Source: Deinococcus radiodurans R1 = ATCC 13939 = DSM 20539
GTDB taxonomy: Bacteria; Deinococcota; Deinococci; Deinococcales; Deinococcaceae
Assembly: GCF_000008565.1 (NCBI RefSeq)
Contig: NC_001263.1
Location: forward strand, 675,776-707,775
Direction: 5' to 3'
Length of the DNA: 32,000 nucleotides
Part shown: positions 16,127 to 29,268 of the stretch, one piece after another
How the letters are laid out: every line of letters begins with the position of its first letter
Numbering within the stretch: position 1 is the stretch's first letter
Program-made: the position numbers and the translations under genes
Notes under the pieces: generated by a model
What the model was told of the DNA's origin: nothing
The model's input: only the letters and a program-made list of their open reading frames with translations
The model's database searches: none

Positions 16127-16435
16127 AGGCTCGTTGAGGTTTTGCACAGTGTCAGGTTGAACTTGGTTCAGACGTTGTGAGAAATCTCATATTTGGAAGT
16201 GCTTCCTGAGCCATTATAAAGAAGTCCCCGCGCACCCCATGCCTGGCCGTATGAGGAGTGTGAACGACGAAGTGGTTTTGAAGCAGGGAAGCATCTGACG
16301 CATTCGGGCGCCTTGTCAGATGTGGAGCGAGTGGCGCGACCGGCAAAGCTGTGGCAACACACTTGCCGGTTGTTTGTTGTCTCTCGGCTGGCCCCGCCCT
16401 CTTATGTTCTGAACGCTTTTCTCAAGGAGTTGCAC

Positions 16436-18454
16436 ATGCGTACATTCTCTTCTCTCTCCGCTGTGGTCGCAGCACTCGCACTGGGTACTGCTGGGGCACA
16501 GACCCTCGCTACTCCCCCCACTACTCCCGCGGGCACGGAGATCATCAACAAGGCGGAAATCACCTTCACGCCCGAATCCACCCCGACCAACCCCAACCCC
16601 CCCAGCGAAACCATTGAGACGCCGCCCGTCATCACGGTGGTCAACCCGGTGCCGAGCTTTACCATCACCCCCAACGACGGCAGCAAGGACACCACCCAGC
16701 CCGACTACACCAACCCCGGTCAGACCAGGGAAGTCAAGCCGTGCGACAAGAACGTGACCTTTGCTTACACGTTGACCAACACCGGCAACGTGAACGGCGA
16801 GTCGTACACGCTGACCAACACGCCTGACCCCACCGGCGCGGTCAAGACCCCCGAGAACATCCGGTTCTACCTCGACAGCAACAACAACGGTCAGCTCGAC
16901 CAGAGCGAGATTGCTGCGGGAGCCACCACCACCATCACGGACGTGGCGATCAACCAGACCGTCAAGTTCTTCCAGGTCTACGACGTGCCCTGCACCGCGA
17001 CGAGCACCGACAAGTTCGGTGGCGATCCCACCGGCACCCGCAACGACAACCCCAACTTCAGCAACGATCCCACCCTGCCGCGTGACGCCAACAACTCCAA
17101 CACCGTCACCATCAACCGCAAGGATGGCGTCGTGATCGGGCCTAAGGCTGACCCGGACGGCAACGGCAACCCCGTGACCCCCGCTTACAACAGCCCCGAA
17201 GGCATCAACATCGTCCCCACGGCCAGCGACACCCAGGTGGCGACCGTGACCACGCTGCCGACGAGCGGCGTGACTGTCACCTTCACCAATACCATCCAGA
17301 ACACCGGCAACCGCACCGACACCTTCGAACTGACCCAGACCAACACCTTCCCTGCCGGAACCACGGTCGTGTTCAAGGACGCCAACGGCAACGCCCTGCC
17401 CACCGTCAACGGCAAGCCCGTCGTGCAGAATGTGCCTGAAAACGGCACTGTCGACATCCAGGTCATCGTGACGCTGCCTGCCGGCGTGACCCCCACCCAG
17501 CTCTCCGGTCAGCCTGCGGTGACGGTCACCACCACCAGCCAGAACGACCCGACCAAGAGCGACACCACCAAGGACATCATCGAAGTCAAGGTGCCCGGTA
17601 TCGCCTTCGGTGACCCCACTCCTGGCCTCGGCGGTGACCCGACCCCCGTCGGCACGCCTCCCACGGGCGTTCCCGGCAACCCCGGCACCCCTCTCACCCC
17701 TGGCAACCCCCAGACCTGCACGGCGCCTATCCGCACCTACCTGCCGATGGAAATTGCCAACCTGGGCAGCCAGGACGACGCCTTCGTGGTCAGCGGCACC
17801 GCGCCTGTGACCGTCCTCAACCCCGACGGCACCGTCAACCCCACCCCCGTGATCGTGCCCGTGGTGTACTACCGCGACGTGAACGGCGACGGCAAGCTCG
17901 ACGCTGGCGACACCGAGCTCCAGGGCGGCAACACCGGCACCATCAAGCCCGGTGAAGAAATCAAGCTGATTGCTGTGGTCGACGTGCCCTGCGCCGCCGC
18001 CCAGCAGACCATCACGCTGAACCAGGAAGCCAAGTCGCCCACCACCGGCGTGTCTCAGAAGGATCCCAACGACACCATCACCGTCGGCGGCAACGGCGGC
18101 AAGCCCATCGTCACCAAGACGGTCGACAAGGCCACCGCCAACCCCGGCGATACGCTGACCTACACCATCATCGGCAAGAACACCTCGAACGCCAACGTGA
18201 AGCAGGCCCTGGTGTGCGACACCGTGCCGACCAACACCACGTTCGTGAGCTTCACGGCCACCACCAACGCCAGCGGTACCGTCGTGTACTCAAACAACGG
18301 CGGCTCCAGCTGGAGCGCGAGCGCCACGGCCCCCGCTGCGGGCGCCAAAGTGTGCGCGGGTGTGGACACCAACAACGATGGCAAAGTCGACGCGGCTGAC
18401 ATCCTCAAGCCCGGCGAAACCATCACCGTGACCTACCAGGTCAAGGTGAACTGA
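16436..18454 (+). CDS. Secreted Thr/Asn/Pro-rich Ig-like repeat protein with a C-terminal DUF11 module (cluster gene 1; candidate major surface/fibre subunit)
   Basis: I chose the ATG at 16436, 6 nt after AAGGAG. It gives the signal peptide MRTFSSLSAVVAALALGTAGA|QT. The DUF11 signature is KTVDKATANPGDTLTYTIIGKNTSNANVKQALVCDTVPTNTTFVS. There are three DxNxDGxxD loops (LDSNNNGQLDQSE, RDVNGDGKLDAGD, VDTNNDGKVDAAD). The upstream 41 codons of the track ORF are unlikely to be coding. Confidence 0.85.
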   Translation: MRTFSSLSAVVAALALGTAGAQTLATPPTTPAGTEIINKAEITFTPESTPTNPNPPSETIETPPVITVVNPVPSFTITPNDGSKDTTQPDYTNPGQTREVKPCDKNVTFAYTLTNTGNVNGESYTLTNTPDPTGAVKTPENIRFYLDSNNNGQLDQSEIAAGATTTITDVAINQTVKFFQVYDVPCTATSTDKFGGDPTGTRNDNPNFSNDPTLPRDANNSNTVTINRKDGVVIGPKADPDGNGNPVTPAYNSPEGINIVPTASDTQVATVTTLPTSGVTVTFTNTIQNTGNRTDTFELTQTNTFPAGTTVVFKDANGNALPTVNGKPVVQNVPENGTVDIQVIVTLPAGVTPTQLSGQPAVTVTTTSQNDPTKSDTTKDIIEVKVPGIAFGDPTPGLGGDPTPVGTPPTGVPGNPGTPLTPGNPQTCTAPIRTYLPMEIANLGSQDDAFVVSGTAPVTVLNPDGTVNPTPVIVPVVYYRDVNGDGKLDAGDTELQGGNTGTIKPGEEIKLIAVVDVPCAAAQQTITLNQEAKSPTTGVSQKDPNDTITVGGNGGKPIVTKTVDKATANPGDTLTYTIIGKNTSNANVKQALVCDTVPTNTTFVSFTATTNASGTVVYSNNGGSSWSASATAPAAGAKVCAGVDTNNDGKVDAADILKPGETITVTYQVKVN

Positions 18455-18464
18455 GGCCTCTCGT

Positions 18465-18512
18465 GAGGCGGCGCCCTCCTGCCTGCGGGCGGGGCGTGCG
18501 CCGCCTCTTTTG
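18465..18512 (+). terminator. Strong rho-independent terminator/attenuator after cluster gene 1
   Basis: There is a perfect 10-bp GC-rich stem, GAGGCGGCGC (18465-18474) with GCGCCGCCTC (18498-18507), followed by TTTT. Confidence 0.75.
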
Positions 18513-18589
18513 CACTTCCTTTTGTTCTGCCCCAACACGAGAAGCCTATTTTTCAAGCAAGCAGAGTCGTTCCTGATCTGGGAGGCACC

Positions 18590-21586
18590 GTGCAACAATC
18601 CCTTGGACTGAAAGAGTCTCGCCCGAAGGTCGTGGGGCCGTTGCTGGCCCTGTCGCTGGCCCTGGGTACCCCCGCCCTGGCCGCCGGTACCCCCGCCGGG
18701 ACCATCATTCGCAACCAGGCCACCCTGGAATATCTGCTGCTCAGCGGCACCCCCGAAACGATCACCACCCCGCCGGTAGAAACGGTGGTCAGCCCTGTTT
18801 GTAGTGTGAGTGTGCTGCCCAACGGCACCGTCAGCGCACCCGGTCAGAGTCTGTCTCTCGATCCGGGGCAGAGCGGGCTGCTGCGGTACACGCTCTTCAA
18901 CGCGGGCAACACCACCAATACCTACGCACTCGAAGCGGTCAACGAGGCGGGGTCGCAGTTTGCGCCGCAACTCGCCATCTATCAGGATCTCAACGGCAAC
19001 GGCGTCGTGGACAACGGAGAAGGGCCGCTGAGCAACGTGGCGGTCAATGCCGACCAGACGGTCAATCTGCTGGTGCAGGTGGTGACGGGCAGCGCGGCGC
19101 GCGGGACCGCATTCCCCAACCTGATTGCCAGTTGCGGTGGCGGAGCGTCCACCAATGGGCGTGATGCCGACAACGTTTCGCAGGTCACCCTGACCAACCC
19201 ACCGGTGCTGGCGCTGCAAAAGACCTTCACCCCCGCCGAGGTGCGGGCGGGCGGCGAAACCACCGTCAACCTGACCTTGACCAACAACGGCGGCGACTCG
19301 CGTGAAGCGGTGCTGACCGACCTGCTGAACACGCCTGAGCTGCGTGACTTCGTGTTTGTCAGTGGGAGCGCTCGCCTGGGCGGCAACGCGAGAGACGCTG
19401 TCATTGAATACACCGCCGACGGGAGCAGTTGGAACACGGTGCAGCCCCCGAACGTGGCGGGCATCCGGGTGCGGACCTCGTCGGTGCCGGCGGGCGGCAG
19501 CCTGCAACTTTCCTTCACGCTGCGTGCCCCCCGTGTGACGGCTACTACCCGGCGCAACGTCGCCACAGTCGTCAGCGGCGGTCAGACCATCGAAGCGACG
19601 GCGCCTATCGGAATTCGTCCAGTCGTTGAAATCGCCTTGGGGCCGCAGGGCAACCCTCGTGCGCTGCCCGGCGGCGAGATGAGCGCCGACGACCGTCAGG
19701 TGCGCGACAGCGTCGTGGGCGGCCAAGAAGTGTGCTTTACCCACACCGTGCAGAACCTCGGCGACCTGACCGACACCATCAGCACTGGGGTCAGCCGCAT
19801 CAATGAAGGCGCCAATTACACTCTGCGCGACATGGCCGGGAAACCGATCAACGGGGACTTCGTGGTCACGCTCGAGCCGCAGCAGACCGCCGATTTCCAG
19901 GCGTGTTACTCCTACCCGACCGCCGAGCGCACCTCGCTCGAAGCGGTGCTGACCAGCCGCAGCTCGCAGGGCGCGGCGGACAACCGCACGGTGGACCAGA
20001 TCACCACCGTCTACCCCAACACCATCGGCCTGACCAAGACGAGCGACCGGGGGCAGAACGCGCTGGTGGCCCCCGGCGAAGAACTGACCTACACTCTGAC
20101 TTTCACCAACACGCTGCCGGTGCCGCTCAATGGTGTAGTGGTGCGCGACCCACTCGGCGTGATCTACCCGCCCGGCACCCCCAGCCCCATCAGGCCGACC
20201 AGCGTGACCCGGCCCGCGACGGCGGCGGTGCCGAGCAAGGCGCCCGCAGCGGCAGCCAGCGTGACCACGGCGAGCCGGCCTCTGGCGGCCCAGGCCACCA
20301 ATGTCGGCGCTCTGGAGTTCGTGCGGGCCGACCGGGGCGGCGTGCTGGAAAACGGCGAGGTCGTCTGGCGACTCGGCACCGTGCAGCCGGGCGAAACCGT
20401 GACCCTGCACGTGACGGTGCGGGTGCCGGCCACGATGACCGACGGCGCCGTCATCCACAACATCTACACCCTGACGAGCACCGAGCTGCCCACGCCGCTG
20501 GAATCGCCGCCTGCCACCAACACGGTGTTCAACCCCGGCAACTTCGAACTGACCAAGACGAGCAACCCCACCACCGTGGTCTTTGGGGAAACGATCACCT
20601 ACATCTTTACCGTAACCAACCGCAGCACCGTGGTTCCGCTGAAAAACGTCCAAGTGCAGGACACCCTGCCGGCTGGGCTGGTCTATCAGGAGAACAGCAG
20701 CGGCTACCGCGCGGGCCTGTCGGGTGAGTTCACCCCGATTCAGCCGACCATCCGTGACCGGACCTACGTCTGGACCATCCCCGAGGTGGCTCCCGGCGCG
20801 AGCGCGCAGGTCAGCTTTCGCGCCATCGTGACGCCGGAAGCGGGCACGCAGCTTCGCAACAACGCTGTGGGCCGCGCCGTCGCCAGCGAGCGCGAAACCA
20901 ACTCGCGTCCGACAGGCGTGCTCAACCGGGTCGAGCCGCTGAGCTTCGGGGTCAACAACGCCGACCTGGTCGGTTACGTCTTCCTCGACCGCAACCGCAA
21001 CGGCGTGTACGACTACCTCGTCGACCTGCCCTGCCCCAAGGCGCGGGTGATTCTCGCCAATGGCCGCATCGAGTTGACCGACAACGAGGGCCGTTACCAC
21101 TTCCGCAACGTGCGCGAGCAGACCTGGGGCCTGCGCCTCGACCCCAACTCGGTGGCGCTGCCCGCGCTGCAAATGCCGCAGGATAGTGGCCGCCCTGGCA
21201 GCCGCCAGGTGTACGTGCGCGGCCTGACCAGCGTGGACTTCGCGCTCGCGCCTGACGGCGGCGACATCGCCGTGATCCGCGACACCACGCTGCGGATCAG
21301 CGGCGGCCCCGAGGGCGCCCAGAAGACCATGCAGGTGCAAAAGCAGGTGTTCACCACGCCGGACGCCGGCGTCTACCGCGTGCAGCTTATTCTGGGCAAC
21401 CAGCAGCCGCTGCCCGGCTTTACCCTGACCGATCCGCTGCCGACGGGCGCACAGCTCGTGGACGGCGAGAACGTCCTCAATTTCGATCCCCTGCCCAGCG
21501 GCGAACGCGCGGTGACCTACCGCTTCCGCTGGCAGGGTGATTCCAAGGCCGCCGTCACCGACCCGACGGCAAGCTGGAGGTACTGA
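18590..21586 (+). CDS. Secreted multi-DUF11 / SdrD-B-like repeat protein (cluster gene 2)
   Basis: The GTG start follows GGGAGG. The signal peptide is ...VVGPLLALSLALGTPALA|AG. DUF11 modules include GEELTYTLTFTNTLPVPLNGVVVRDPL and FELTKTSNPTTVVFGETITYIFTVTNRSTVVPLKNVQVQDTLPAGLVY. An SdrD-B/Cna-B-like module reads LVGYVFLDRNRNGVYD...TDNEGRYHFRNV. Confidence 0.85.
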   Translation: MQQSLGLKESRPKVVGPLLALSLALGTPALAAGTPAGTIIRNQATLEYLLLSGTPETITTPPVETVVSPVCSVSVLPNGTVSAPGQSLSLDPGQSGLLRYTLFNAGNTTNTYALEAVNEAGSQFAPQLAIYQDLNGNGVVDNGEGPLSNVAVNADQTVNLLVQVVTGSAARGTAFPNLIASCGGGASTNGRDADNVSQVTLTNPPVLALQKTFTPAEVRAGGETTVNLTLTNNGGDSREAVLTDLLNTPELRDFVFVSGSARLGGNARDAVIEYTADGSSWNTVQPPNVAGIRVRTSSVPAGGSLQLSFTLRAPRVTATTRRNVATVVSGGQTIEATAPIGIRPVVEIALGPQGNPRALPGGEMSADDRQVRDSVVGGQEVCFTHTVQNLGDLTDTISTGVSRINEGANYTLRDMAGKPINGDFVVTLEPQQTADFQACYSYPTAERTSLEAVLTSRSSQGAADNRTVDQITTVYPNTIGLTKTSDRGQNALVAPGEELTYTLTFTNTLPVPLNGVVVRDPLGVIYPPGTPSPIRPTSVTRPATAAVPSKAPAAAASVTTASRPLAAQATNVGALEFVRADRGGVLENGEVVWRLGTVQPGETVTLHVTVRVPATMTDGAVIHNIYTLTSTELPTPLESPPATNTVFNPGNFELTKTSNPTTVVFGETITYIFTVTNRSTVVPLKNVQVQDTLPAGLVYQENSSGYRAGLSGEFTPIQPTIRDRTYVWTIPEVAPGASAQVSFRAIVTPEAGTQLRNNAVGRAVASERETNSRPTGVLNRVEPLSFGVNNADLVGYVFLDRNRNGVYDYLVDLPCPKARVILANGRIELTDNEGRYHFRNVREQTWGLRLDPNSVALPALQMPQDSGRPGSRQVYVRGLTSVDFALAPDGGDIAVIRDTTLRISGGPEGAQKTMQVQKQVFTTPDAGVYRVQLILGNQQPLPGFTLTDPLPTGAQLVDGENVLNFDPLPSGERAVTYRFRWQGDSKAAVTDPTASWRY

Positions 21587-21588
21587 GA

Positions 21589-24500
21589 GTGAAACGCGCC
21601 ATCACCACCCTGACGGCGGCGCTGCTGGGCGCGGCGGCCGCGCAGGAAATCGCCACCTCCCTGCCCCTGACCTCCGTCGGCAACAAGCTGATGTGGACGG
21701 TGGGCGACCAGGACCTGAAGCTGGTCGTGGGCGTCTCGTCGCGCGTGCAGCTCGATGTCTACGGAGCGCAGTTCGACCCGCAGGACTACCGCAGCCCCGA
21801 CTACTTCGGCGATGAGAACTACTCGACCGCTCGGCCCAAAGAGCCGGTTGCCAGCTCCTTCGTCTTGACCAATGCCGCCGGCGAGGTCGTCAAGGAATTT
21901 AACTACGGCGCCGGGGTGCAGGACTGGCAGACCTTCCTCAACCAGGACCTGCCCGCCGGTACCTACACCCTCAAGGTCCGCACCGAGGGCAACGGCAAAA
22001 ACACCTTCGCCTTCCGCCTGAACTCGATCAGCGCGGCGGTGCAGGCCGATCACCTCAACGTGACGGTCCGCAGCAACGACTGGGTGCCGGCGCTCAACGT
22101 CTACAACCCCGGCGGCCCTTTGACCGTCAAGATGTACGACGGCGACGGCCCGCAGGAACTCGAAGCCGAGCTGCGCGACGCGGCGGGCAACAGCTACCCG
22201 ATCAAGGTGAGCGGCCAGCTCGAGTGGGACGATATCCAGGTGCCTGAGGCGAAGGGCAACTACACGGTGTTCCTGCGCCAGCCGCAGGGCACCTTCCAGT
22301 ACTCCAACACCGTGGGCTTTCAGCTCACCGGCGCGCCGATCACGGTGGTCAATGCCGACACCACCGGCAAGCTGCAACTGGTGGCCGAACTGGTACTGCC
22401 GGACGAAACGCTGCCCACCCAGGCCACCGTGCAGGTCGGCGAACAGACCTACGAGGTGCAGGGCTCGGCGGGCCCGGTCACCCTGCCCGCGCAGGAGTAC
22501 CCGGTTAGCGCCGCGCCGATCAAGGGTGCCGAAGTCACGGTAGACCAGCCGGCGGTCACCGTCGAGAAGGAGCAGACCAAGACCGTCAAGGTGCAGGTCA
22601 AGCCCGACGTGGCCCTGAACTTCAGCGCCGACAAACCCGAAGTGTGTGTGGGCGACGTGGTGAAATTCACCGCCCGCGCCACCACCGAGTTCGAGCGTCA
22701 GGCGCTGCCCGCCACCGTGCAGGTCAAGCTGCCGGCAGGCTTTACCGCTGCTGGCGAAACCACCGTCACCGCCAGAGTGGACGCGAACAACCCCGGCGTG
22801 CTGGTCTTCGAGGCCAAGGCCGGCGCCGCCGCTGCCGGGGAGCAGCAGGTCACCGCGACCCTGCTGCCCTGGAACAAGACCCAGGACCTCGGCGTGCGGG
22901 TGCAGCCCACCGCCACCCAGATCGAGCTGCGCCGCAGTGACCTCGCCACCGCCCAGCCCGGCGACACGGTGACGGTCACGCTGACGCTGAAAAACACCAG
23001 CGGCGCCCCCGCGCCCTACCAGCTCACCGACCGCCCCGGCGAGCGCCTCGAAGCGCTGGACCCTGCCACCTTCAGCGGTGAACTTGCGCCCGGCGAGGAA
23101 AAGACCCTGAGCTACCGCGCCCGCGTGAAGGGCGAAGCGGCGGGCCAGAGTGACCTGCAAGCCACCCTGAGCAGCGCCTGCGACAGCCAGCAGACGGTGG
23201 CCGGCACCCTCAGCGTGACCCCGCCCCCGCCGCCCCCCGTCAAAACGGTGGTGGCGGTGCAGCGCGAGAGCACGGTCCGCATTCCCTTCGACTCGCCCAA
23301 GTCGGCGACCCAGATCGTCATTGCCCACCAGCCGCCCAAGGACTCGGTGTACGTGACGGGCAGCAGCGCCCTGAACGGCAAGAGTGTGGACGACCCCGAG
23401 ACCGGGCCCAGCGGGAAGCTGTACTGGACCACCCCCGGTGCGCCGCGCGGCGTGCTGACCTACAAGGTGACCCACGAAGGCGCGCTGGGCGCCCTGGAAA
23501 GCCCCACCCTGGTCGGCAAATACGCCAAGAACAACCTCGAAATTCTGGTTGGCGACGGGAATCTCGACGACCTCGGCAACCTGCGTAAGCTCAGTACCCA
23601 GGCCGAGGGCGAGGAAAACCCCGGCACTGTCCGGCTGCCGCTCGACGGCACCGTCTACCGTGACCGCGACCGCGTGACCGTGGCCGTGCAGGGCGCGGTG
23701 GACGACGAGGCGCTGCCGACCGTGAACGGTGTGGCCGTCGACGCCGCGACCCTCGGGAAAAAGGTCACCGACCCCGGCAAGGGCACACTGCGCCGCGAGT
23801 TCTTCGGGCAACTGCTCAAACCCGGCGAGAACGTCGTGTCCTACGGGGGCCAGCAGATCAAGGTGTACCTGGCGGGCACGCCGGTCAGCGCCGAACTGAC
23901 CCCGCTGCAACTCGTGGCCGACGGCGTGACCCCCATCAAGGTGGGCGTCAAGCTGCTCGACGCGGCGGGCATCGCCAACGGCACCTCGGTGACGGTGCAG
24001 ACCTCGCTCGAACCCGAGCGCCGGGACGCGCAGCCCACCGTGGGCAGCTACCAGATCCGGCTCAAAGACGGCGAAGGCGTGCTGGAAATGCAGCCGCTGG
24101 GCACCCCCACCCGCTTCGACGTGAAGGTGCTGGTGGGCGAAACCCCCATCAGCCGCAGCTTCGAGGCCGTGCCGAGCAAGACCCGCGTGGGCATCGGCAC
24201 CGTGAGCGTCGGGGCGCTGCTGGGTGCAGGAGGCGCGGCGGCTGGCGAAGCGCGGGCCGCCGGCTACCTCGAAACCCCCATCGGCGAGGGCAAACTGTAC
24301 GTGGCGGGCGCGGGCGCCGTGACCGCCGAGCCCGACCAGAACGGCCAGATCAAGTTCCAGCAAGACCGTCAGGCCGGGCTGCCCACCACCGCCAACCCGC
24401 TGGAGCGCTACCCCACCTACGGCGACTCCAGCACCCACGACATTCCCCTCCAGGGCATCGACCCGGTGGCCTTTCGCTACGAGCACCCGAGCTTCAATGT

Positions 24501-26565
24501 GCAGTACCGCCAGTCGGCGCTGCCGGTGGACGTGTTTAACCTCGGCATCAACCCCACGGCGCTCAGCGGCTTTACCCGCACCAACCCGCAGGTGTCGGGC
24601 TTCGTGGCGGCGCTGCCCAAGGACGAGGTGCGCGCCGAGTTTCCCGCCAACGGCACCCGCGTCCTGAGCCTGGGCCGCGCGGGGCTGCTGCCCGATAGCG
24701 AAGTCGTCGAACTGGTGTCGGTGGACGCCCGCACGGGCGCCGAGCGCATCACCACCTTGCAGCGCCTGCGCGAGTACACCGTGGACTACGCCAGCGGCGT
24801 CATCTACTTCCAGAAAGCCGTCGGGCTGACCGACGTGGACGGCAATCCGCAGGTGGTACGTGTGCGCTACCGCCTCGACGACGCGATGGCCCAGCGGCAG
24901 GTCGCCTGGGGCGTGCAGGCCAGCTCGCGGCTGCTCGATGATCGTCTGGTGCTCGGCGCCGCCGCCGTGCAACTCGACGGCGCGACCAGCATCGGCGTGC
25001 GCGCCCGGTACGCCGACGGTATCAGCCGCGCCGACCTGCTCGCGGCCTACAGCGGCGGCGTACTGGTCAACGGCACCGCCGACATGAAGACCGAGCGCCT
25101 GGAGGCCCGCGCCAGCGTGCGCTATCAGGACCCCGGCTACCACGGCCTGAACCGGGTCGAGGACGGCATCGCCGCCGACGCCCGCGCCAACTACAAGCTG
25201 ACCGACCGCCTGGGTGTGGGCGTCACGGGCTATTACCGCAAAGACATCGACACCGACGGCAAAACCGAAGGCGACCGCAACGGGGGCTACGCCGACGTGC
25301 GGGCAACCTACGACTTCAAGCCCTTCAGTGTGGGTCTGGGCGTCCGCGCCGGCTTCGGTGACCAGCGCGGCTTCGGCGTGGTCGGCAGTGCGGGCTACAG
25401 TCAGAACGGCTACGTGGTCAAGGTCGAGCACGCCCAGCCCCTCGGCGGCGAGCTGACCCCGACCACCACCGTGAGTGCCACCGCGCCCGTCACCGAAAAC
25501 GTGACCCTGACTGCCCGCGACGAAGTGCGCTGGGGTCAGGACAGCCGCGCGTCCATCGGCCTGAACTCGCGCTTCGGCATGACGAACATCGCCGTCAACT
25601 ACGACCTGCCCGGCGCCGACGGCTGGGGCAACCGCGCCCGCTTCGGGGTGGACACGGCGCTGCCGCTGAGCGACAAGCTGTCGCTGGGCCTGAACGCCGG
25701 CTACCTGCTCGACCTGGCCGGCGACGGCGACGGCTGGAACGCCGGAGCGAGCCTGCGCTACAAGGACGAGCGCCTGGTCGCCACCCTCGGCAGCGACGTG
25801 GCCCACAAGAACGACGGCTTCCGGGTGGCCTTTAAAGGCGGGGCGAGCTACTCGCTCAACGACCGCCTGACCGTGAGCGCCGACGCGACCCACGTGACGG
25901 GGCCGCAGCCCACCGACGCGGGCACCAACGTCGCCCTGAGCGCGGCGCTGCGGGCCAGCCAGTGGCAGGGCCTCGCCTACCTGCGCTACAAGGACGGCGC
26001 TCTGGCCGCCCAACGACCCGAAGTCATCGGCGAAGCGAACATCGAATACCACGTGCCGCGCTACGCCCTGCGTGGCGGCATCGCGGGCCGGATGCTGCTC
26101 CAGCAGCCCGAAAGTGCGACCTATCAGGTCTCGGCGAGCGGCACCTACTACTTCACCGACCGCCTGGGCCTGGGCCTTGCCGGACGCGCCCTGCTCCAGC
26201 CGGCCACCGGCTACCAGGGCTACAGCTTCGGGGTCGAGGGCAGCGTGCGCGCCCTGCCCGGCACCTGGGTCACGCTGGGCTACAACCCGGTGGGCTTCAG
26301 CGGCATCAACTCCAACCTCTACACCCGCCAGGGGGCCTATGTGCGCCTCGACCTGATGTTCGATGATGGGCAGTACGGCGGCGACACGCAGCCGGCCCAA
26401 TCGCAGGTTCAGCCGCAAGGCTCCCAGGTCCAGCCCGCCGCGCCGCAGGGTCGGCAGCCTGCCCCGGTGAATCTGAACTTGCAAGGGCAGCGCGGTGACT
26501 TGCCGCCCACCGATGCCACTGTGGCCGCGCCTGTGCCGGCCCCCGCCCCGACGGAGGGAAAATAA
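21589..26565 (+). CDS. Giant secreted protein (1658 aa): N-terminal Ig-like/DUF11/Big_1-like domain array plus a large C-terminal outer-membrane beta-barrel-like region and a Pro/Gln-rich tail (cluster gene 3; candidate usher/anchor)
   Basis: The GTG at 21589 lies 2 nt after the gene 2 stop, with GGAGG 9 nt upstream. The signal peptide is MKRAITTLTAALLGAAAA|QE. A DUF11-like module reads AQPGDTVTVTLTLKNTSGAPAPYQLTDRPGERL. A Big_1-like module reads LQLVADGVTPIKVGVKLLDAAGIANGTSVTVQTS. From about nt 24170 there are long runs of short alternating amphipathic strands rich in G/Y/R/D, ending in the beta-signal-like GAYVRLDLMF. Confidence 0.85.
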   Translation: MKRAITTLTAALLGAAAAQEIATSLPLTSVGNKLMWTVGDQDLKLVVGVSSRVQLDVYGAQFDPQDYRSPDYFGDENYSTARPKEPVASSFVLTNAAGEVVKEFNYGAGVQDWQTFLNQDLPAGTYTLKVRTEGNGKNTFAFRLNSISAAVQADHLNVTVRSNDWVPALNVYNPGGPLTVKMYDGDGPQELEAELRDAAGNSYPIKVSGQLEWDDIQVPEAKGNYTVFLRQPQGTFQYSNTVGFQLTGAPITVVNADTTGKLQLVAELVLPDETLPTQATVQVGEQTYEVQGSAGPVTLPAQEYPVSAAPIKGAEVTVDQPAVTVEKEQTKTVKVQVKPDVALNFSADKPEVCVGDVVKFTARATTEFERQALPATVQVKLPAGFTAAGETTVTARVDANNPGVLVFEAKAGAAAAGEQQVTATLLPWNKTQDLGVRVQPTATQIELRRSDLATAQPGDTVTVTLTLKNTSGAPAPYQLTDRPGERLEALDPATFSGELAPGEEKTLSYRARVKGEAAGQSDLQATLSSACDSQQTVAGTLSVTPPPPPPVKTVVAVQRESTVRIPFDSPKSATQIVIAHQPPKDSVYVTGSSALNGKSVDDPETGPSGKLYWTTPGAPRGVLTYKVTHEGALGALESPTLVGKYAKNNLEILVGDGNLDDLGNLRKLSTQAEGEENPGTVRLPLDGTVYRDRDRVTVAVQGAVDDEALPTVNGVAVDAATLGKKVTDPGKGTLRREFFGQLLKPGENVVSYGGQQIKVYLAGTPVSAELTPLQLVADGVTPIKVGVKLLDAAGIANGTSVTVQTSLEPERRDAQPTVGSYQIRLKDGEGVLEMQPLGTPTRFDVKVLVGETPISRSFEAVPSKTRVGIGTVSVGALLGAGGAAAGEARAAGYLETPIGEGKLYVAGAGAVTAEPDQNGQIKFQQDRQAGLPTTANPLERYPTYGDSSTHDIPLQGIDPVAFRYEHPSFNVQYRQSALPVDVFNLGINPTALSGFTRTNPQVSGFVAALPKDEVRAEFPANGTRVLSLGRAGLLPDSEVVELVSVDARTGAERITTLQRLREYTVDYASGVIYFQKAVGLTDVDGNPQVVRVRYRLDDAMAQRQVAWGVQASSRLLDDRLVLGAAAVQLDGATSIGVRARYADGISRADLLAAYSGGVLVNGTADMKTERLEARASVRYQDPGYHGLNRVEDGIAADARANYKLTDRLGVGVTGYYRKDIDTDGKTEGDRNGGYADVRATYDFKPFSVGLGVRAGFGDQRGFGVVGSAGYSQNGYVVKVEHAQPLGGELTPTTTVSATAPVTENVTLTARDEVRWGQDSRASIGLNSRFGMTNIAVNYDLPGADGWGNRARFGVDTALPLSDKLSLGLNAGYLLDLAGDGDGWNAGASLRYKDERLVATLGSDVAHKNDGFRVAFKGGASYSLNDRLTVSADATHVTGPQPTDAGTNVALSAALRASQWQGLAYLRYKDGALAAQRPEVIGEANIEYHVPRYALRGGIAGRMLLQQPESATYQVSASGTYYFTDRLGLGLAGRALLQPATGYQGYSFGVEGSVRALPGTWVTLGYNPVGFSGINSNLYTRQGAYVRLDLMFDDGQYGGDTQPAQSQVQPQGSQVQPAAPQGRQPAPVNLNLQGQRGDLPPTDATVAAPVPAPAPTEGK

Positions 26566-29220
26566 ATGAAGGGTCAGTCTCTCTCTCAAGCGGCGCTCAG
26601 TGGGCCAACCCTTGCCAGGCCAGGGCGATACAGGCGTTCTCTGATGAGCCGTCTACTGGTCCTGACGACGGCCCTGGGCGGCGCCCTGACGGTGGCCGGA
26701 GCAGGCGCGGCCCCTGCCACCAGAACCGACCTCGCTGTCTACAAGTATGTAGACCTCACCAACAGCCGTGATCCCAATATCAGCAAGTTCTATGTGGGCG
26801 ACACCGTGCGCTACTCGTTGCAGGTCGTCAACAACGGCTCGCTGGCGGTCAGTGGCGCCGCGCTGACCGACGTGGCCGAGCCCGGTCTGGAGGGTCTGAC
26901 CTGGACCTGTAGCGTGGTCCGGGGCGACGCGCAGTGTCCGGCGGCGTCCGGCACCGGGCTCCCCAACTTCAGCATTCCCCGACTGGGCGCAGACAGCGAG
27001 CTGAAGATCACCTACACGGCCAAAGTCACGGCGGTGGACCCGCAGCTGACGAACACGGCCCAGATCATCCCGCCGGCAGGAATCACCGACATCAACCCGG
27101 CCAACAACAAAGACACGGTCTATATCTGCACCTTCGACGTCAATCGCCCGCGCGAAACCACCCTGACACTCGCCAAGAGCAGCAACGGTCCGTGGACGGT
27201 GGGTCAGAGTGGGGCGCTCTACACCCTGACGATAGGCAACGAAGCCAACTTCGACAGCCAGGGCACGGTCACGGTGCGCGACCTGTTGCCCAACGGGATC
27301 ACGCCGCTGAGCAGCAGCTTTGCGCCTGCGCCGAACTGGGGCTGCACCGTGAGCGGCCAGCTCGTGACCTGCACGACCTCGCAGCCGATTGTCGCCACCA
27401 AGACCGTGACCATCACCATCCCGGTCAATGTGGGCGCCGCCGCTGTGGGCACTGTGACCAACCGGGCAGCAGTGGGCGGCGGCGGCGACCCGGACCCCAT
27501 TCCAAATCCCGCCACCTGCACGCCGGGCACGGGCAATCCGGCCAACCAGTGCGCCCAGACGACCACCGTGGTCACGGGGTCGACTCCGCCCGACGCGCCC
27601 GACGTGCCGGTGCCCACCCAATGTTCCAACCTCTACGGTCTGATGTTCACCAGCCCTAACTCGCTGAGTGGCCGCAGCATCAACCTGCTTGACCCCAGCA
27701 CCAACGCGGTAGGCACGCGTGTGGCGACCTTGCCCACGTTGGGCCGCCATGCCCTGACGTCAGCCGCCCTGGCAGTCTCACCCGACAGCCAGACGTTCTA
27801 TGTGGCGACGGACGCCTATCTCGGCGATTCGGACGCTCTGTGGAGTTATAACTCGTCGACGGCTCGCTGGTCCCGGGTCGGCGGTTTCGGCGGCGTGACT
27901 GGCCGCATCGTGCGGATGGCCATGACCAGCAGCGGGGTCGGTTATGCCATGGATTCGGACGGGAACTTCTGGAGCTTTGCGGGGGCAGGGAACATCAGGC
28001 TGCTGGGCAAGCTGACGCCTTCGGGGACCAATGTTCCCGGCTTCTATGAAAACGGCGACTTTTTCGCGGCGGCGGACGGCAAGCTCTACCTGCTCAGCGC
28101 ACAGACCGGGGGCAACGTCGGCCTGTGGTTCGTGGACCCCCGCACCCTCAAGGCCGAGTACCTGGGCAACCTGACCAGCACGTCGGGAAGTGTGCAGTAC
28201 AACGGCCTCGCCGCGCTGCCGAGCGGCATCTACGCGGCCAACTCGGCGGGGAATCTGGCGACCATCGACCTGGCGACCGTCACCCTGAAGACGGTGGGCA
28301 CTGCCAACATCGGCTCGGCTGACCTCGCCAGCTGCACTTACCCCGATTTCTCGCCACGTATCGAAGTCACCAAGAGTGCTCAGAAGGTCGGCGGGGACCT
28401 GTCGACCCCCGTGGTGCAGCCCGGCGACGTGCTCGAATACACCATCGTCGTGCGTAACTCTGGGCAGTTGCCCGCAGGCGGAGTGGTCGCCACCGACCCG
28501 CTGCCCGAGGGCGTGACCTACGTGCCGGACAGCGCCCGTGTCAACAACGCGACCTTCACGGTCTACAACGGCAGGCAGGTCAACCTCGGCGGGGCCGCCT
28601 ATCCCTTCGCGCAGCCGGTGGGCGTGTGCAGCCTGAGCAGCGGCGCCTGCGTCAACCAGGTGCTGCGGGTGGACACGACGCCCGGCGTCCTTGATCAGGA
28701 AGCGGTGGTCACCTTCCGTGTGAAGGTGGACGACCCCTTTACCAAGGCCGACAGCAAGGTGCTCAACCAGGCCGTCGTGACCTACACCGATGGCAACACC
28801 CCGCCCAAGCCGATTCCCAGCAACCCGGTGGACGTGCCGGTCAACCGCCCGGTCAAGATCAACGCCATCAAGACCGTGCAGAACATGACGGCGGGCACCC
28901 CGGCGGCCACCACCGGCAGCGGCAAGCCCGGCGACGTGCTGGAATACTGCATCACGACCAGCAACGTGGGCAGCGGCGTGGCGGCCAACATGCGCTTTGC
29001 CGACAGCGTGCCGGTCAACACCACCTTCCAGCTCGGCGGTTACGGCCTGGCAGGCCAGGACATTCGTTACACCGGCCCGTCGGGCACGCAGTTCCTCAGC
29101 GCGGCTGACGACGGCGATGCGGGCAGCCTCAACACTGGCCGCGTGCTGGTCAATGGCCTCCCCGCGCGTCTGGAGCCGGGGCAGCAGTATCAGGTCTGCT
29201 TCCGCGCGACCATCAAATAA
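26566..29220 (+). CDS. Secreted DUF11 repeat protein with a central beta-propeller-like insertion (cluster gene 4; candidate adhesin)
   Basis: The ATG abuts the gene 3 stop (TAAATG) with GGAGGG 8 nt upstream. The hydrophobic signal is SRLLVLTTALGGALTVAGAGA after an RR-containing n-region. DUF11 modules include GDVLEYTIVVRNSGQLPAGGVVATDPLPEGVTYV and GDVLEYCITTSNVGSGVAANMRFADSVPVNTTF. A central block of about 240 aa lies between two Cys residues and has repeated short strand motifs (FYVATD, GYAMDSDGNFWSF, GKLYLLSAQ, GIYAANSAGNLATIDL). Confidence 0.85.
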   Translation: MKGQSLSQAALSGPTLARPGRYRRSLMSRLLVLTTALGGALTVAGAGAAPATRTDLAVYKYVDLTNSRDPNISKFYVGDTVRYSLQVVNNGSLAVSGAALTDVAEPGLEGLTWTCSVVRGDAQCPAASGTGLPNFSIPRLGADSELKITYTAKVTAVDPQLTNTAQIIPPAGITDINPANNKDTVYICTFDVNRPRETTLTLAKSSNGPWTVGQSGALYTLTIGNEANFDSQGTVTVRDLLPNGITPLSSSFAPAPNWGCTVSGQLVTCTTSQPIVATKTVTITIPVNVGAAAVGTVTNRAAVGGGGDPDPIPNPATCTPGTGNPANQCAQTTTVVTGSTPPDAPDVPVPTQCSNLYGLMFTSPNSLSGRSINLLDPSTNAVGTRVATLPTLGRHALTSAALAVSPDSQTFYVATDAYLGDSDALWSYNSSTARWSRVGGFGGVTGRIVRMAMTSSGVGYAMDSDGNFWSFAGAGNIRLLGKLTPSGTNVPGFYENGDFFAAADGKLYLLSAQTGGNVGLWFVDPRTLKAEYLGNLTSTSGSVQYNGLAALPSGIYAANSAGNLATIDLATVTLKTVGTANIGSADLASCTYPDFSPRIEVTKSAQKVGGDLSTPVVQPGDVLEYTIVVRNSGQLPAGGVVATDPLPEGVTYVPDSARVNNATFTVYNGRQVNLGGAAYPFAQPVGVCSLSSGACVNQVLRVDTTPGVLDQEAVVTFRVKVDDPFTKADSKVLNQAVVTYTDGNTPPKPIPSNPVDVPVNRPVKINAIKTVQNMTAGTPAATTGSGKPGDVLEYCITTSNVGSGVAANMRFADSVPVNTTFQLGGYGLAGQDIRYTGPSGTQFLSAADDGDAGSLNTGRVLVNGLPARLEPGQQYQVCFRATIK

Positions 29221-29238
29221 CCCCTTAGTTTCCTGAGC

Positions 29239-29268
29239 AGGCCGTCTCCCCGTGAGGCGGTCTGTTTT
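29239..29268 (+). terminator. Terminator-like hairpin after cluster gene 4
   Basis: AGGCCGTC with GGCGGTCT forms an 8-bp stem including two G-T pairs, with a 9-nt loop, followed by GTTTTGCGTTTG. Confidence 0.5.

Follow-up and report, generated by a model that had tools for sequence, protein, structure and literature searches.

The described systems closest to the one considered here are the chaperone-usher pili (type 1, P and archaic Csu), the type V pili of Bacteroidota (FimA/Mfa1), sortase-dependent pili, the archaeal threads of Saci_0406 (PMC9715654), and the fibrillar adhesins and Gram-positive pilins built with CLIPPER, CnaA or CnaB domains. We compare them with a cluster of four co-directional genes, called g1 to g4 below, in a 32,000-nucleotide (nt) stretch of the Deinococcus radiodurans R1 genome (NC_001263.1, positions 675,776 to 707,775 of the forward strand; hereafter the window). 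The cluster probably encodes a multi-component surface fibre or adhesin system in which g3 is the outer-membrane barrel. The chances of the full model, in which the proteins join head to tail through domains split between neighbouring subunits, appear evenly balanced, and covalent junctions along such a fibre are proposed tentatively. No description of this cluster, or of a split CLIPPER domain, was found in the literature. An earlier note on this DNA had judged that chaperone-usher, type IV, classical type V and Gram-positive pilus models do not fit the cluster, and we likewise find that it lacks the chaperone and the usher-family barrel of chaperone-usher systems and the defining features of sortase-dependent and type V pili, of autotransporters and of type IX secretion cargo. 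The same note had asked whether homology would place the cluster in an already characterised system, and no such homology was found in the sequence databases or the literature.

DUF11, which was renamed CLIPPER in 2025, is a CnaA-like isopeptide domain of nine strands, in which a Lys of strand 1 is bonded within the molecule to an Asn near the end of the domain (on the penultimate strand), with an Asp as catalyst (PMC12617251). In the nine-stranded Protein Data Bank (PDB) structure 9IFR, this triad consists of K715, D748 and N806, and such domains are typical as stalk modules of monomeric fibrillar adhesins, some of which are OmpA-anchored (PMC12617251). The cluster shares both the family and the catalytic triad of 9IFR. 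By contrast, the natural bonds described for CLIPPER, CnaA and CnaB domains are intramolecular, and subunits are joined by sortases, whereas the domain reads here as naturally split, with one part at a C-terminus and the rest at the N-terminus of a different protein, in a diderm and with no sortase signal. We refer to the unfinished C-terminal part as the acceptor and to the two-strand N-terminal part as the donor hairpin. Unlike in sortase-dependent pili, no C-terminal LPXTG-type signal with a hydrophobic tail occurs in the cluster proteins; an LPxTG-like string is found in g1 only internally (residue 274), with no hydrophobic tail, and no sortase open reading frame (ORF) is present in the cluster.

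In its proposed plan, the cluster resembles chaperone-usher pili in having an acceptor-only tip, a shaft subunit with a donor and an incomplete domain, and a terminal donor-bearing subunit. The two also share a large outer-membrane barrel with an inserted beta-sandwich and a major subunit gene that comes first in the operon and is followed by a hairpin. However, no PapD-like chaperone gene or match is present among the four cluster ORFs, and g3 is unrelated to ushers in sequence, with about 36 predicted strands rather than 24 and without the usher C-terminal domains. In addition, the donor of the cluster is a two-strand hairpin that would complete a CnaA-like nine-strand domain, not a single strand, and a conserved Lys-Asp-Asn triad extends across the junction. 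The donor/acceptor pattern, as read from the sequences, looks analogous to the incomplete immunoglobulin-like (Ig-like) fold of chaperone-usher subunits, with a different fold.

Type V pili are comparable in their chaperone-free strand exchange in a diderm and in their tip and anchor subunits. Their pilins, however, are lipoproteins activated by proteolysis with a C-terminal donor strand, whereas the cluster proteins have no lipobox and no FimA-type match, the folds differ, and there is no dedicated barrel gene in a type V operon. Engineered split isopeptide domains (SpyTag/SpyCatcher, DogTag) reassemble and form their bond spontaneously in trans. Among natural systems, the closest precedent for combining donor complementation with intermolecular isopeptide bonds is, by analogy, the archaeal thread, which shares with the proposed fibre head-to-tail donor-strand complementation, apparent intermolecular isopeptide bonds (from cryo-EM density) with no known sortase, and an adjacent putative cap protein without one of the two elements (PMC9715654). 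It differs in being archaeal, with no outer membrane or barrel and an unrelated subunit fold, and in that its proposed bond joins an N-terminal amine to an Asn two subunits away and is not a CnaA-type Lys-Asn bond with a catalytic Asp (PMC9715654).

Gene cluster and apparently split CLIPPER domains

The four ORFs are g1 (16436-18454, 672 amino acids, aa; DR_0685, AAF10267.1), g2 (18590-21586, 998 aa, GTG start; AAF10262.1), g3 (21589-26565, 1658 aa, GTG start; AAF10268.1 / WP_010887332.1) and g4 (26566-29220, 884 aa; AAF10263.1). Each is an exact match to a database protein, and all four are publicly annotated as DUF11-domain or hypothetical proteins only. Coordinates here and below are window positions on the + strand, unless another locus is named. 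The genes lie between carA and the UDG-family gene ung, beyond which a topoisomerase IB gene is located, and since they are the only four ORFs between carA and ung, the cluster contains no chaperone, sortase, ATPase or secretin gene. The earlier note had read the ORF coordinates, the carA and ung flanks and the absence of such genes correctly, and also the signal peptides of all four proteins: each N-terminus contains the hydrophobic core of a signal peptide and lacks a lipobox Cys, and no transmembrane-like segment beyond the signal peptide was seen in any of the four. The recurrence of the cluster in 80 examined loci, together with the exact D. radiodurans protein matches, indicates that it is not a chance feature.

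Against the Pfam DUF11 profile (PF01345, gathering cut-off 24.6 bits), g1 (28.1 bits, one domain), g2 (89.1 bits, three domains) and g4 (103.9 bits, three domains) score above the cut-off, and the same three proteins match NCBIfam TIGR01451. The DUF11 modules that had been noted earlier thus stand for these proteins, whereas those of g3 are sub-threshold (17.6 bits). When termini were compared, first across 15 loci and then across all loci, all g1 and g2 homologues were found to start directly after the signal peptide with TPAGTxIxNxAxxxY...SNxVxTxV, which reads as the last two CLIPPER strands (8 and 9) with nothing before them. All g1 and fourth-gene products, in turn, stop right after strand 7, which precedes those two (e.g., ...LKPGETITVTYQVKVN and ...GQQYQVCFRATIK).

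In g1, a candidate shaft subunit that carries both elements (on the basis of Pfam, AlphaFold 2 (AF2) and conservation), the donor hairpin comprises residues 30-70 (16523-16645; TPAGTEIINKAEITF...ETPPVITVV, with Asn38) and is defined by conservation and the AF2 model. Conservation among 73 homologues reaches at least 90% at each of its residues T34, I36, N38 and A40, and the model places strands at residues 35-38, 40-46, 58-61 and 65-69, with a predicted local distance difference test score (pLDDT) of 82-88. The g1 model as a whole (pLDDT 84.6) is a tandem Ig-like array. At the other end, the g1 acceptor (residues 553-672; 18092-18451; Pfam and model) is a CLIPPER domain that ends after strand 7, covering profile positions 4-88 of 114 only and showing seven strands in the model as compared with nine in 9IFR; among the same 73 homologues, its Lys561 is at least 90% conserved and its Asp595 is invariant. 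The comparison of termini also places a donor hairpin in g2 at residues 32-70 (18683-18799; GTPAGTIIRNQATLEY..., with Asn42), and Pfam and hidden Markov model (HMM) matches place an acceptor in g4 at residues 756-884 (28831-29217), with Lys769 and Asp813, that ends ...QVCFRATIK with no Asn strand. The acceptor Lys lies in the context xTKTVD in g1 and xKTVQN in g4. In the terminal domains of both g1 and g4, therefore, Lys and Asp are present and the Asn strand is absent, and neither holds the full Lys-Asp-Asn triad within one nine-strand domain. At least one internal domain of g2 (residues ~650-770) does have the Lys, the Asp and the Asn, as judged by eye.

Overall, g4 has an acceptor without a donor, g2 has a donor without an acceptor, and g1 has both. 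A further acceptor without a donor is found in g0, a small secreted protein (~161-200 aa) encoded in many related loci, which consists of a single acceptor-type CLIPPER-like domain and has no donor hairpin. Because donors and acceptors are thus found on separate proteins (g4, g0 and g2), the elements, if used at all, would have to pair in trans. The linker between the g1 hairpin and domain 1 is four residues long (NPVP), as it is between neighbours in the tandem array, so a head-to-tail chain would recreate a continuous array.

We also joined acceptors in silico to the hairpin and scored these chimeras against Pfam DUF11, with shuffled and reversed hairpins as controls. Alone, the g1 acceptor scored 35.6 bits over profile positions 4-88; with the native g1 hairpin it scored 41.5 bits (positions 4-107), as compared with 36.2 bits for the shuffled and 36.9 bits for the reversed hairpin (both positions 4-104). 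The score of the g4 acceptor rose from 16.4 bits (positions 10-51) to 24.7 bits (positions 11-107) with the native g1 hairpin. Chimeras made family-wide (68 g1, 23-24 g4-type and 25-28 g0-type acceptors) and scored against a local HMM of complete domains gained 4-10 bits from native donors, with the match end shifting from ~67-97 to 114-125, whereas reversed or shuffled donors gained ~0 bits. The native chimera exceeded all controls by more than 3 bits for 42 of the 68 g1, 22 of 23 g4 and 26 of 28 g0 acceptors, and the donor Asn fell on the isopeptide-Asn column in 63/68, 22/23 and 27/28 chimeras, respectively. The catalytic Asp is present in 57 of 68 g1 and 27 of 29 g4 acceptors. The C-terminal domain of g2 gave no useful alignment to the complete-domain HMM. 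PDB sequence searches with each protein, with the g1 and g3 family profiles and with the acceptor-plus-hairpin chimera returned nothing meaningful, and the chimera missed 9IFR.

The g4 protein, a candidate tip adhesin, is the variable member of the set, with three DUF11 domains, no donor motif and a sub-threshold beta-propeller match in its centre. Across loci, the fourth gene is large and hypervariable, with only the ~120 C-terminal residues (the acceptor) conserved, and the adhesin-type modules found among these genes include beta-propeller-like, lamin-tail, Laminin_G and GEVED modules. Two starts are conceivable for g4 in D. radiodurans: the ATG at 26566, which abuts the g3 stop and has GGAGGG 8 nt upstream, would add a 26-residue basic extension before the signal peptide, whereas Met27 (26644) would give a standard signal peptide; NCBI records hold the protein as both 884 aa and 858 aa.

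Two local features of the acceptors may be added here. An EF-hand/dockerin-like loop, DTNNDGKVDAADI, occupies g1 residues 642-655 (18359-18400), before the last acceptor strand, and its D644, N646, I651 and D655 are conserved in the g1 family; this loop may bind Ca2+ close to the edge that would receive the donor. Since the Pfam EF-hand matches in g1 are sub-threshold, we treat it as a conserved Ca-loop-like motif only. In g4, Cys795 (28948-28950, ...LEYCI...) and Cys878 (29197-29199, ...VCFRATIK) are at least 90% conserved in fourth-gene acceptors and not in g1 acceptors, and to judge from this pattern they may form a disulfide that stabilises the unfinished domain of the tip.

The predicted g3 barrel and gene order across genomes

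The candidate pore or anchor of the system is g3 (21589-26565), on the basis of AF2, Foldseek and family conservation. An AF2 model of residues 670-1600, built on 97 homologues (mean pLDDT 90, predicted template modelling score 0.81), begins with two to three Ig-like domains and continues with 35-36 beta-strands. The Ig-like domains before the barrel occupy residues 670-860 (23596-24168; model residues 1-190, pLDDT >90) and include a sub-threshold Invasin_D3 match; the predicted barrel extends over residues ~867-1592 (24187-26364). The very large C-terminal beta-barrel proposed earlier for gene 3, on which the earlier note had staked its hypothesis, is thus supported by both the model and its fold matches. 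After barrel strands 3-4, a conserved beta-sandwich is inserted (residues 926-1086, model 257-417; 24364-24846), as judged from the model and its invariant residues. This insert, a candidate plug or gating domain in the model, lies within the segment (g3 residues 678-1094) that is still alignable to a distant fused homologue.

The top Foldseek matches of the g3 model in the PDB are all outer-membrane barrels, namely, LptD, the FimD/PapC ushers, MtrB, TonB-dependent receptors and SlpA of Deinococcus. The template modelling scores (TM-scores) are only 0.15-0.25 overall, and for FimD/PapC they are 0.13-0.21 with an E-value of ~5e-8. Scores of 0.15-0.25 indicate that the g3 barrel differs in size from the matched families and belongs to none of them. 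In line with this, g3 matches no Pfam or NCBIfam barrel family, usher, autotransporter and intimin included. Large barrels have 26 strands in LptD and MtrB, 30 in SlpA and 36 in SprA of the type IX secretion system (T9SS). In size, g3 is therefore of the same order as SprA, and a lumen as wide as that of an SprA-size barrel could pass folded Ig-like domains. However, these very large barrels have no detectable sequence relation to g3, and SprA is not among the 50 Foldseek matches listed. We know of no T9SS in Deinococcus. A pore function of g3 is what we infer from the predicted barrel.

In a HMMER scan of 1.84 billion representative proteins, the g3 family comprised 395 clusters at E <=1e-3 and 169 at E <=1e-10; among the 150 matches listed, the barrel of the full-size ones (~1000-3500 aa) is C-terminal or nearly so. 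Conservation within g3 is highest in its N-terminal region (residues ~20-260; 21646-22368), which has many invariant columns among 25 homologues down to 32% identity and only sub-threshold Ig-like Pfam matches. At the opposite end, a Pro/Gln-rich low-complexity tail follows the last strand (...VRLDLMF; residues 1593-1658, 26365-26562). This tail is variable or absent in homologues and would be periplasmic.

Three other labels for g3 or its parts were considered and rejected. Residues 83-137 resemble a T9SS sorting domain at sub-threshold level (TIGR04183, 18.7 bits against 23) and are not C-terminal. DR_0687 has been proposed to be a Wza-like polysaccharide exporter (26% identity, 27% coverage; PMC10778927), but has no Poly_export/Wza match in Pfam or NCBIfam, and the model is a beta-barrel. 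The 'autotransporter' label in NCBI names is accompanied by no family match, and the barrel is too large for it (~725 residues, 35-36 strands).

We scanned for synteny with one genome per species, which gave 128 confirmed stretches, and examined 80 loci. These are found in Deinococcus (often two to three paralogous loci per genome), Trueperaceae, Meiothermus, Calidithermus and Thermus, and the g1-g2-g3 order is kept in all of these groups. Where the flank suffices, a g2-like gene is located immediately 5' of the g3-like gene, usually with a g1-like gene before it. The gap between g2 and g3 is at most 7 nt, or the genes overlap, in 59 of 61 loci, and g3-g4 junctions are mostly -4, -1 or +1. In the window, the junctions read TGA-GA-GTG with GGAGG upstream (g2/g3) and TAAATG (g3/g4), as the earlier note had described them; the gene order, whose conservation that note had proposed to test, is syntenic within the phylum and beyond it. 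Tandem genes occur as well: three paralogous Deinococcus loci (L027, L038 and L049) have two tandem g1-type donor-plus-acceptor genes, and one Meiothermus locus (L069) has two fourth-type genes that share one C-terminal end. Such doubling suggests mixed shafts or alternative tips.

The g0 gene precedes g1 in 26 of 60 loci and occurs in other phyla (e.g., L002, 4329-4940; L007, 4199-4762; L011, 4118-4630; L081, 9503-9988; L084, 9505-9990). D. radiodurans and its nearest relatives lack the gene, and no remnant was found in the window; a weak match at 16292-16411 is the translated riboswitch region and was rejected as a remnant.

From distant g1 homologues we reached three loci outside the phylum (Krumholzibacteria, Balneolaceae and another metagenome-assembled genome), where a 161-aa acceptor-only protein is followed by a hairpin-plus-acceptor protein of ~880-900 aa. 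In the latter two, a g2/g3-like fusion of 1904-2391 aa and then a large variable adhesin-like protein follow, while the Krumholzibacteria contig ends inside the third gene, which starts with a donor hairpin. The fused g2-g3 polypeptides (L084, 12851-18565; L083, 12704-19879) contain an OmpA peptidoglycan-binding domain, placed differently in each; the 1904-aa fusion consists of the donor hairpin, g2-like domains, OmpA (residues 633-731), g3-like Ig domains, the insert and the barrel. The fusion supports a physical g2-g3 unit, and the position of the OmpA domain, N-terminal to the Ig-barrel part, suggests that the g2-g3 junction is located in the periplasm. Such a junction would fit, as far as the sequences tell, a base subunit that extends outward through the lumen of the barrel to hold the fibre.

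In this unit, g2 (18590-21586) would be a donor-only base or adaptor, as suggested by its three complete DUF11 domains and its translational coupling to the barrel gene, or fusion to the barrel in other phyla. It ends in a motif, ...AVTDPTASWRY (21536-21583), of which ...TDPxxxWRY is invariant; conservation extends across the phylum, from Deinococcus to Thermus and Truepera (Thermales and Truepera have ...TDPxxRWRYP), and the motif is like neither donor nor acceptor. The motif is a candidate for contact with g3.

The 5' leader and transcription signals

A c-di-GMP-II riboswitch aptamer (c-di-GMP, cyclic di-guanosine monophosphate) is located in the 5' leader of g1 (16270-16354; Rfam RF01786, 59.8 bits against a gathering score of 53.5, E 4.5e-11, model positions 1-84 of 84) and ends 82 nt upstream of the g1 start. 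The riboswitch had not been mentioned in the earlier note. An aptamer of the c-di-GMP-II/-GAG clan lies between carA and the first fibre gene in 12 of 12 orthologous Deinococcus loci scanned (D. radiodurans and 11 others); seven paralogous or Thermales/Truepera loci have no such aptamer at the gathering score. A terminator-like hairpin (16336-16373) with a U-rich tail (to 16383) is a candidate expression platform, and the fold of 16322-16385 (-27.8 kcal/mol, z -3.0) was equalled in stability by 0 of 200 shuffles. Because the 5' arm of this hairpin (GACCGGCAAAGCUGUG) is also the 3' part of the aptamer, the two structures are mutually exclusive. This arrangement suggests that ligand binding prevents termination, i.e., an ON switch, and c-di-GMP would then probably raise operon expression through the leader.

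Between the riboswitch platform and the ribosome-binding site AAGGAG (16424-16429) lies a site resembling the DdrO-bound radiation/desiccation response motif (RDRM), TCTTATGTTCTGAACGCTTT (16400-16419). The identical site, TCTTATGTTCTGAACGCTTT, is listed at -37 of DR0685 in a DdrO map from ChIP-seq, in which study the DR0685 protein was unchanged after mitomycin C (PMC8533742). The position of the site suggests that the operon may also respond to the radiation/desiccation regulon. In a separate study, the DR_0687 transcript was lower early in biofilm development (log2 fold change -2.96; PMC10778927). The original GenBank entry of DR_0685 (AAF10267.1) is 713 aa long and begins at a TTG at 16313, a start that would put part of the aptamer in the coding region. 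Given this overlap and the AAGGAG 6 nt upstream of the ATG at 16436, the latter is likely the true start, giving the 672-aa form.

The hairpin 3' of the g1 stop (18465-18507, followed by UUUU to 18511) folds at -39.7 kcal/mol (z -2.65). Its outer stem is a perfect 10 base pairs (bp), as the earlier note had seen, and is extended by an inner stem of 7 bp; it is a candidate partial terminator or attenuator. Another hairpin, 3' of g4 (29235-29268; -28 kcal/mol, z -2.4), marks the end of the operon.

Proposed assembly, alternatives and significance

In the split-domain model, subunits would join in the periplasm, where each incoming subunit would use its hairpin to complete the acceptor domain of the subunit before it. 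The g4 protein, which is variable and adhesin-like and has an acceptor only, would start the fibre as its tip, as g0 may do in other species. Donor and acceptor together would allow g1 to form the shaft, and since it is followed by its own attenuating hairpin, it is probably the most abundant product. With a donor only, g2 would cap the base and tie the fibre to g3, so that the resulting order would be tip g4 (or g0), shaft g1, base g2 and barrel g3. The wide lumen of g3 would be the exit for folded domains. More speculatively, with the triad completed, Lys561 (in g4, Lys769) may become linked to the donor Asn by an isopeptide bond between molecules, which would make the fibre covalent without a sortase. 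In the roles proposed by the earlier note, g4 as the tip and g1 as part of the shaft thus gain a basis in the donor/acceptor pattern and g3 one in the predicted barrel, while g2 no longer appears as a second stalk subunit but as a donor-only base or adaptor. It is possible, if rather doubtful, that the cluster represents a new assembly class found in Deinococcota and several other phyla: a covalent diderm pilus independent of sortases, joined by Lys-Asn bonds, extruded folded through a ~36-strand barrel, tied down by g2/g3 and switched by c-di-GMP.

A number of points weigh against this model. Export through the barrel, polymerisation and adhesion are readings of sequences and predicted structures, and so are the fibre and the cross-link. 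The number of strands in g3 and its reading as a single barrel come from a DSSP string only, and the usher matches, with TM-scores of ~0.2, amount to generic barrel similarity. By HMM, the acceptor of the fourth gene was found in only 26 of the 63 loci whose downstream sequence was long enough; Thermaceae-type ends, which this HMM fails to pick up, appear correct on visual inspection. Deinococcus g0 proteins have L or V in place of the catalytic Asp, so at least that junction would be non-covalent. The gains in the chimera scores are modest (4-10 bits), and the g1 hairpin (pLDDT 82-88) may instead pack on domain 1 or fold back in cis. An unfinished acceptor, moreover, must stay soluble and competent without a chaperone, for which the model offers no explanation, and it gives no role to the WRY motif of g2 or to the conserved N-terminal 250 residues of g3.

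Some of these points are what one would expect if the four proteins were independent, non-polymerising fibrillar adhesins or envelope proteins, with the hairpin part of domain 1 or closing in cis and g3 a porin-like anchor with Ig decorations. CLIPPER domains, as typical stalk modules of monomeric adhesins that are in some cases OmpA-anchored, would suit such proteins, as would the modest chimera gains and the AF2 monomer of g1, which is confident throughout, hairpin and C-terminal domain included. However, cis closure cannot explain g4 and g0, which have an acceptor without a hairpin, or g2, which has a hairpin without an acceptor. The hairpin follows the signal peptide in all g1 and g2 homologues across phyla and carries the very Asn that is missing from the C-terminal domains, and a single machine is favoured by the close coupling of the genes in the operon and by the fusion of g2 and g3. 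We consider independent adhesins unlikely.

It is also conceivable, with a low probability, that the cluster forms an envelope-spanning tether or lattice that connects the outer membrane with the cell wall or the S-layer, like SlpA/OmpM, rather than an extended fibre or an adhesin. Fold matches of g3 include the SlpA barrels of D. radiodurans, relatives possess an OmpA peptidoglycan-binding domain, and DR_0685 was found in the culture supernatant or shed envelope material of a tamB mutant, alongside S-layer proteins (PMC5382914). The protein has also been detected in a published microgravity proteome. No SLH domain was found with Pfam, however, and the fourth gene is hypervariable with adhesin-type modules, as expected of a ligand-binding tip; in general, adhesins and pili are more typical targets of c-di-GMP riboswitches than constitutive scaffolds are. 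Equally improbable is that g3 is a self-exporting, type V-like adhesin (autotransporter or inverse) with its own Ig region as passenger and g1, g2 and g4 as accessories, since, although some homologues are named 'autotransporter outer membrane beta-barrel domain-containing protein' by NCBI and invasin-like Ig domains (Invasin_D3, sub-threshold) directly precede the barrel, neither Pfam nor NCBIfam gives an autotransporter or intimin barrel match, ~36 predicted strands with an inserted domain contrast with 12 strands, and the periplasmic OmpA domain N-terminal to the Ig-barrel part in fused homologues places that side in the periplasm.

If the split-domain model holds, the cluster would represent a further route to surface fibres in diderms, one that uses donor complementation with unrelated parts and no chaperone. 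It would possibly also add a case of covalent self-ligation, which has so far been seen mainly in engineered tags, in phage capsids and in a small number of fibres from archaea or Gram-positive bacteria, and a natural, thermostable ligating pair of this kind, in effect a natural SpyTag/SpyCatcher, might be a source of protein-coupling tools. For the biology of Deinococcus, the model would explain what is done by four large proteins of a model extremophile, now labelled 'hypothetical', and by a barrel family of hundreds of representative clusters, and would tie c-di-GMP signalling in this genus to a concrete surface structure.

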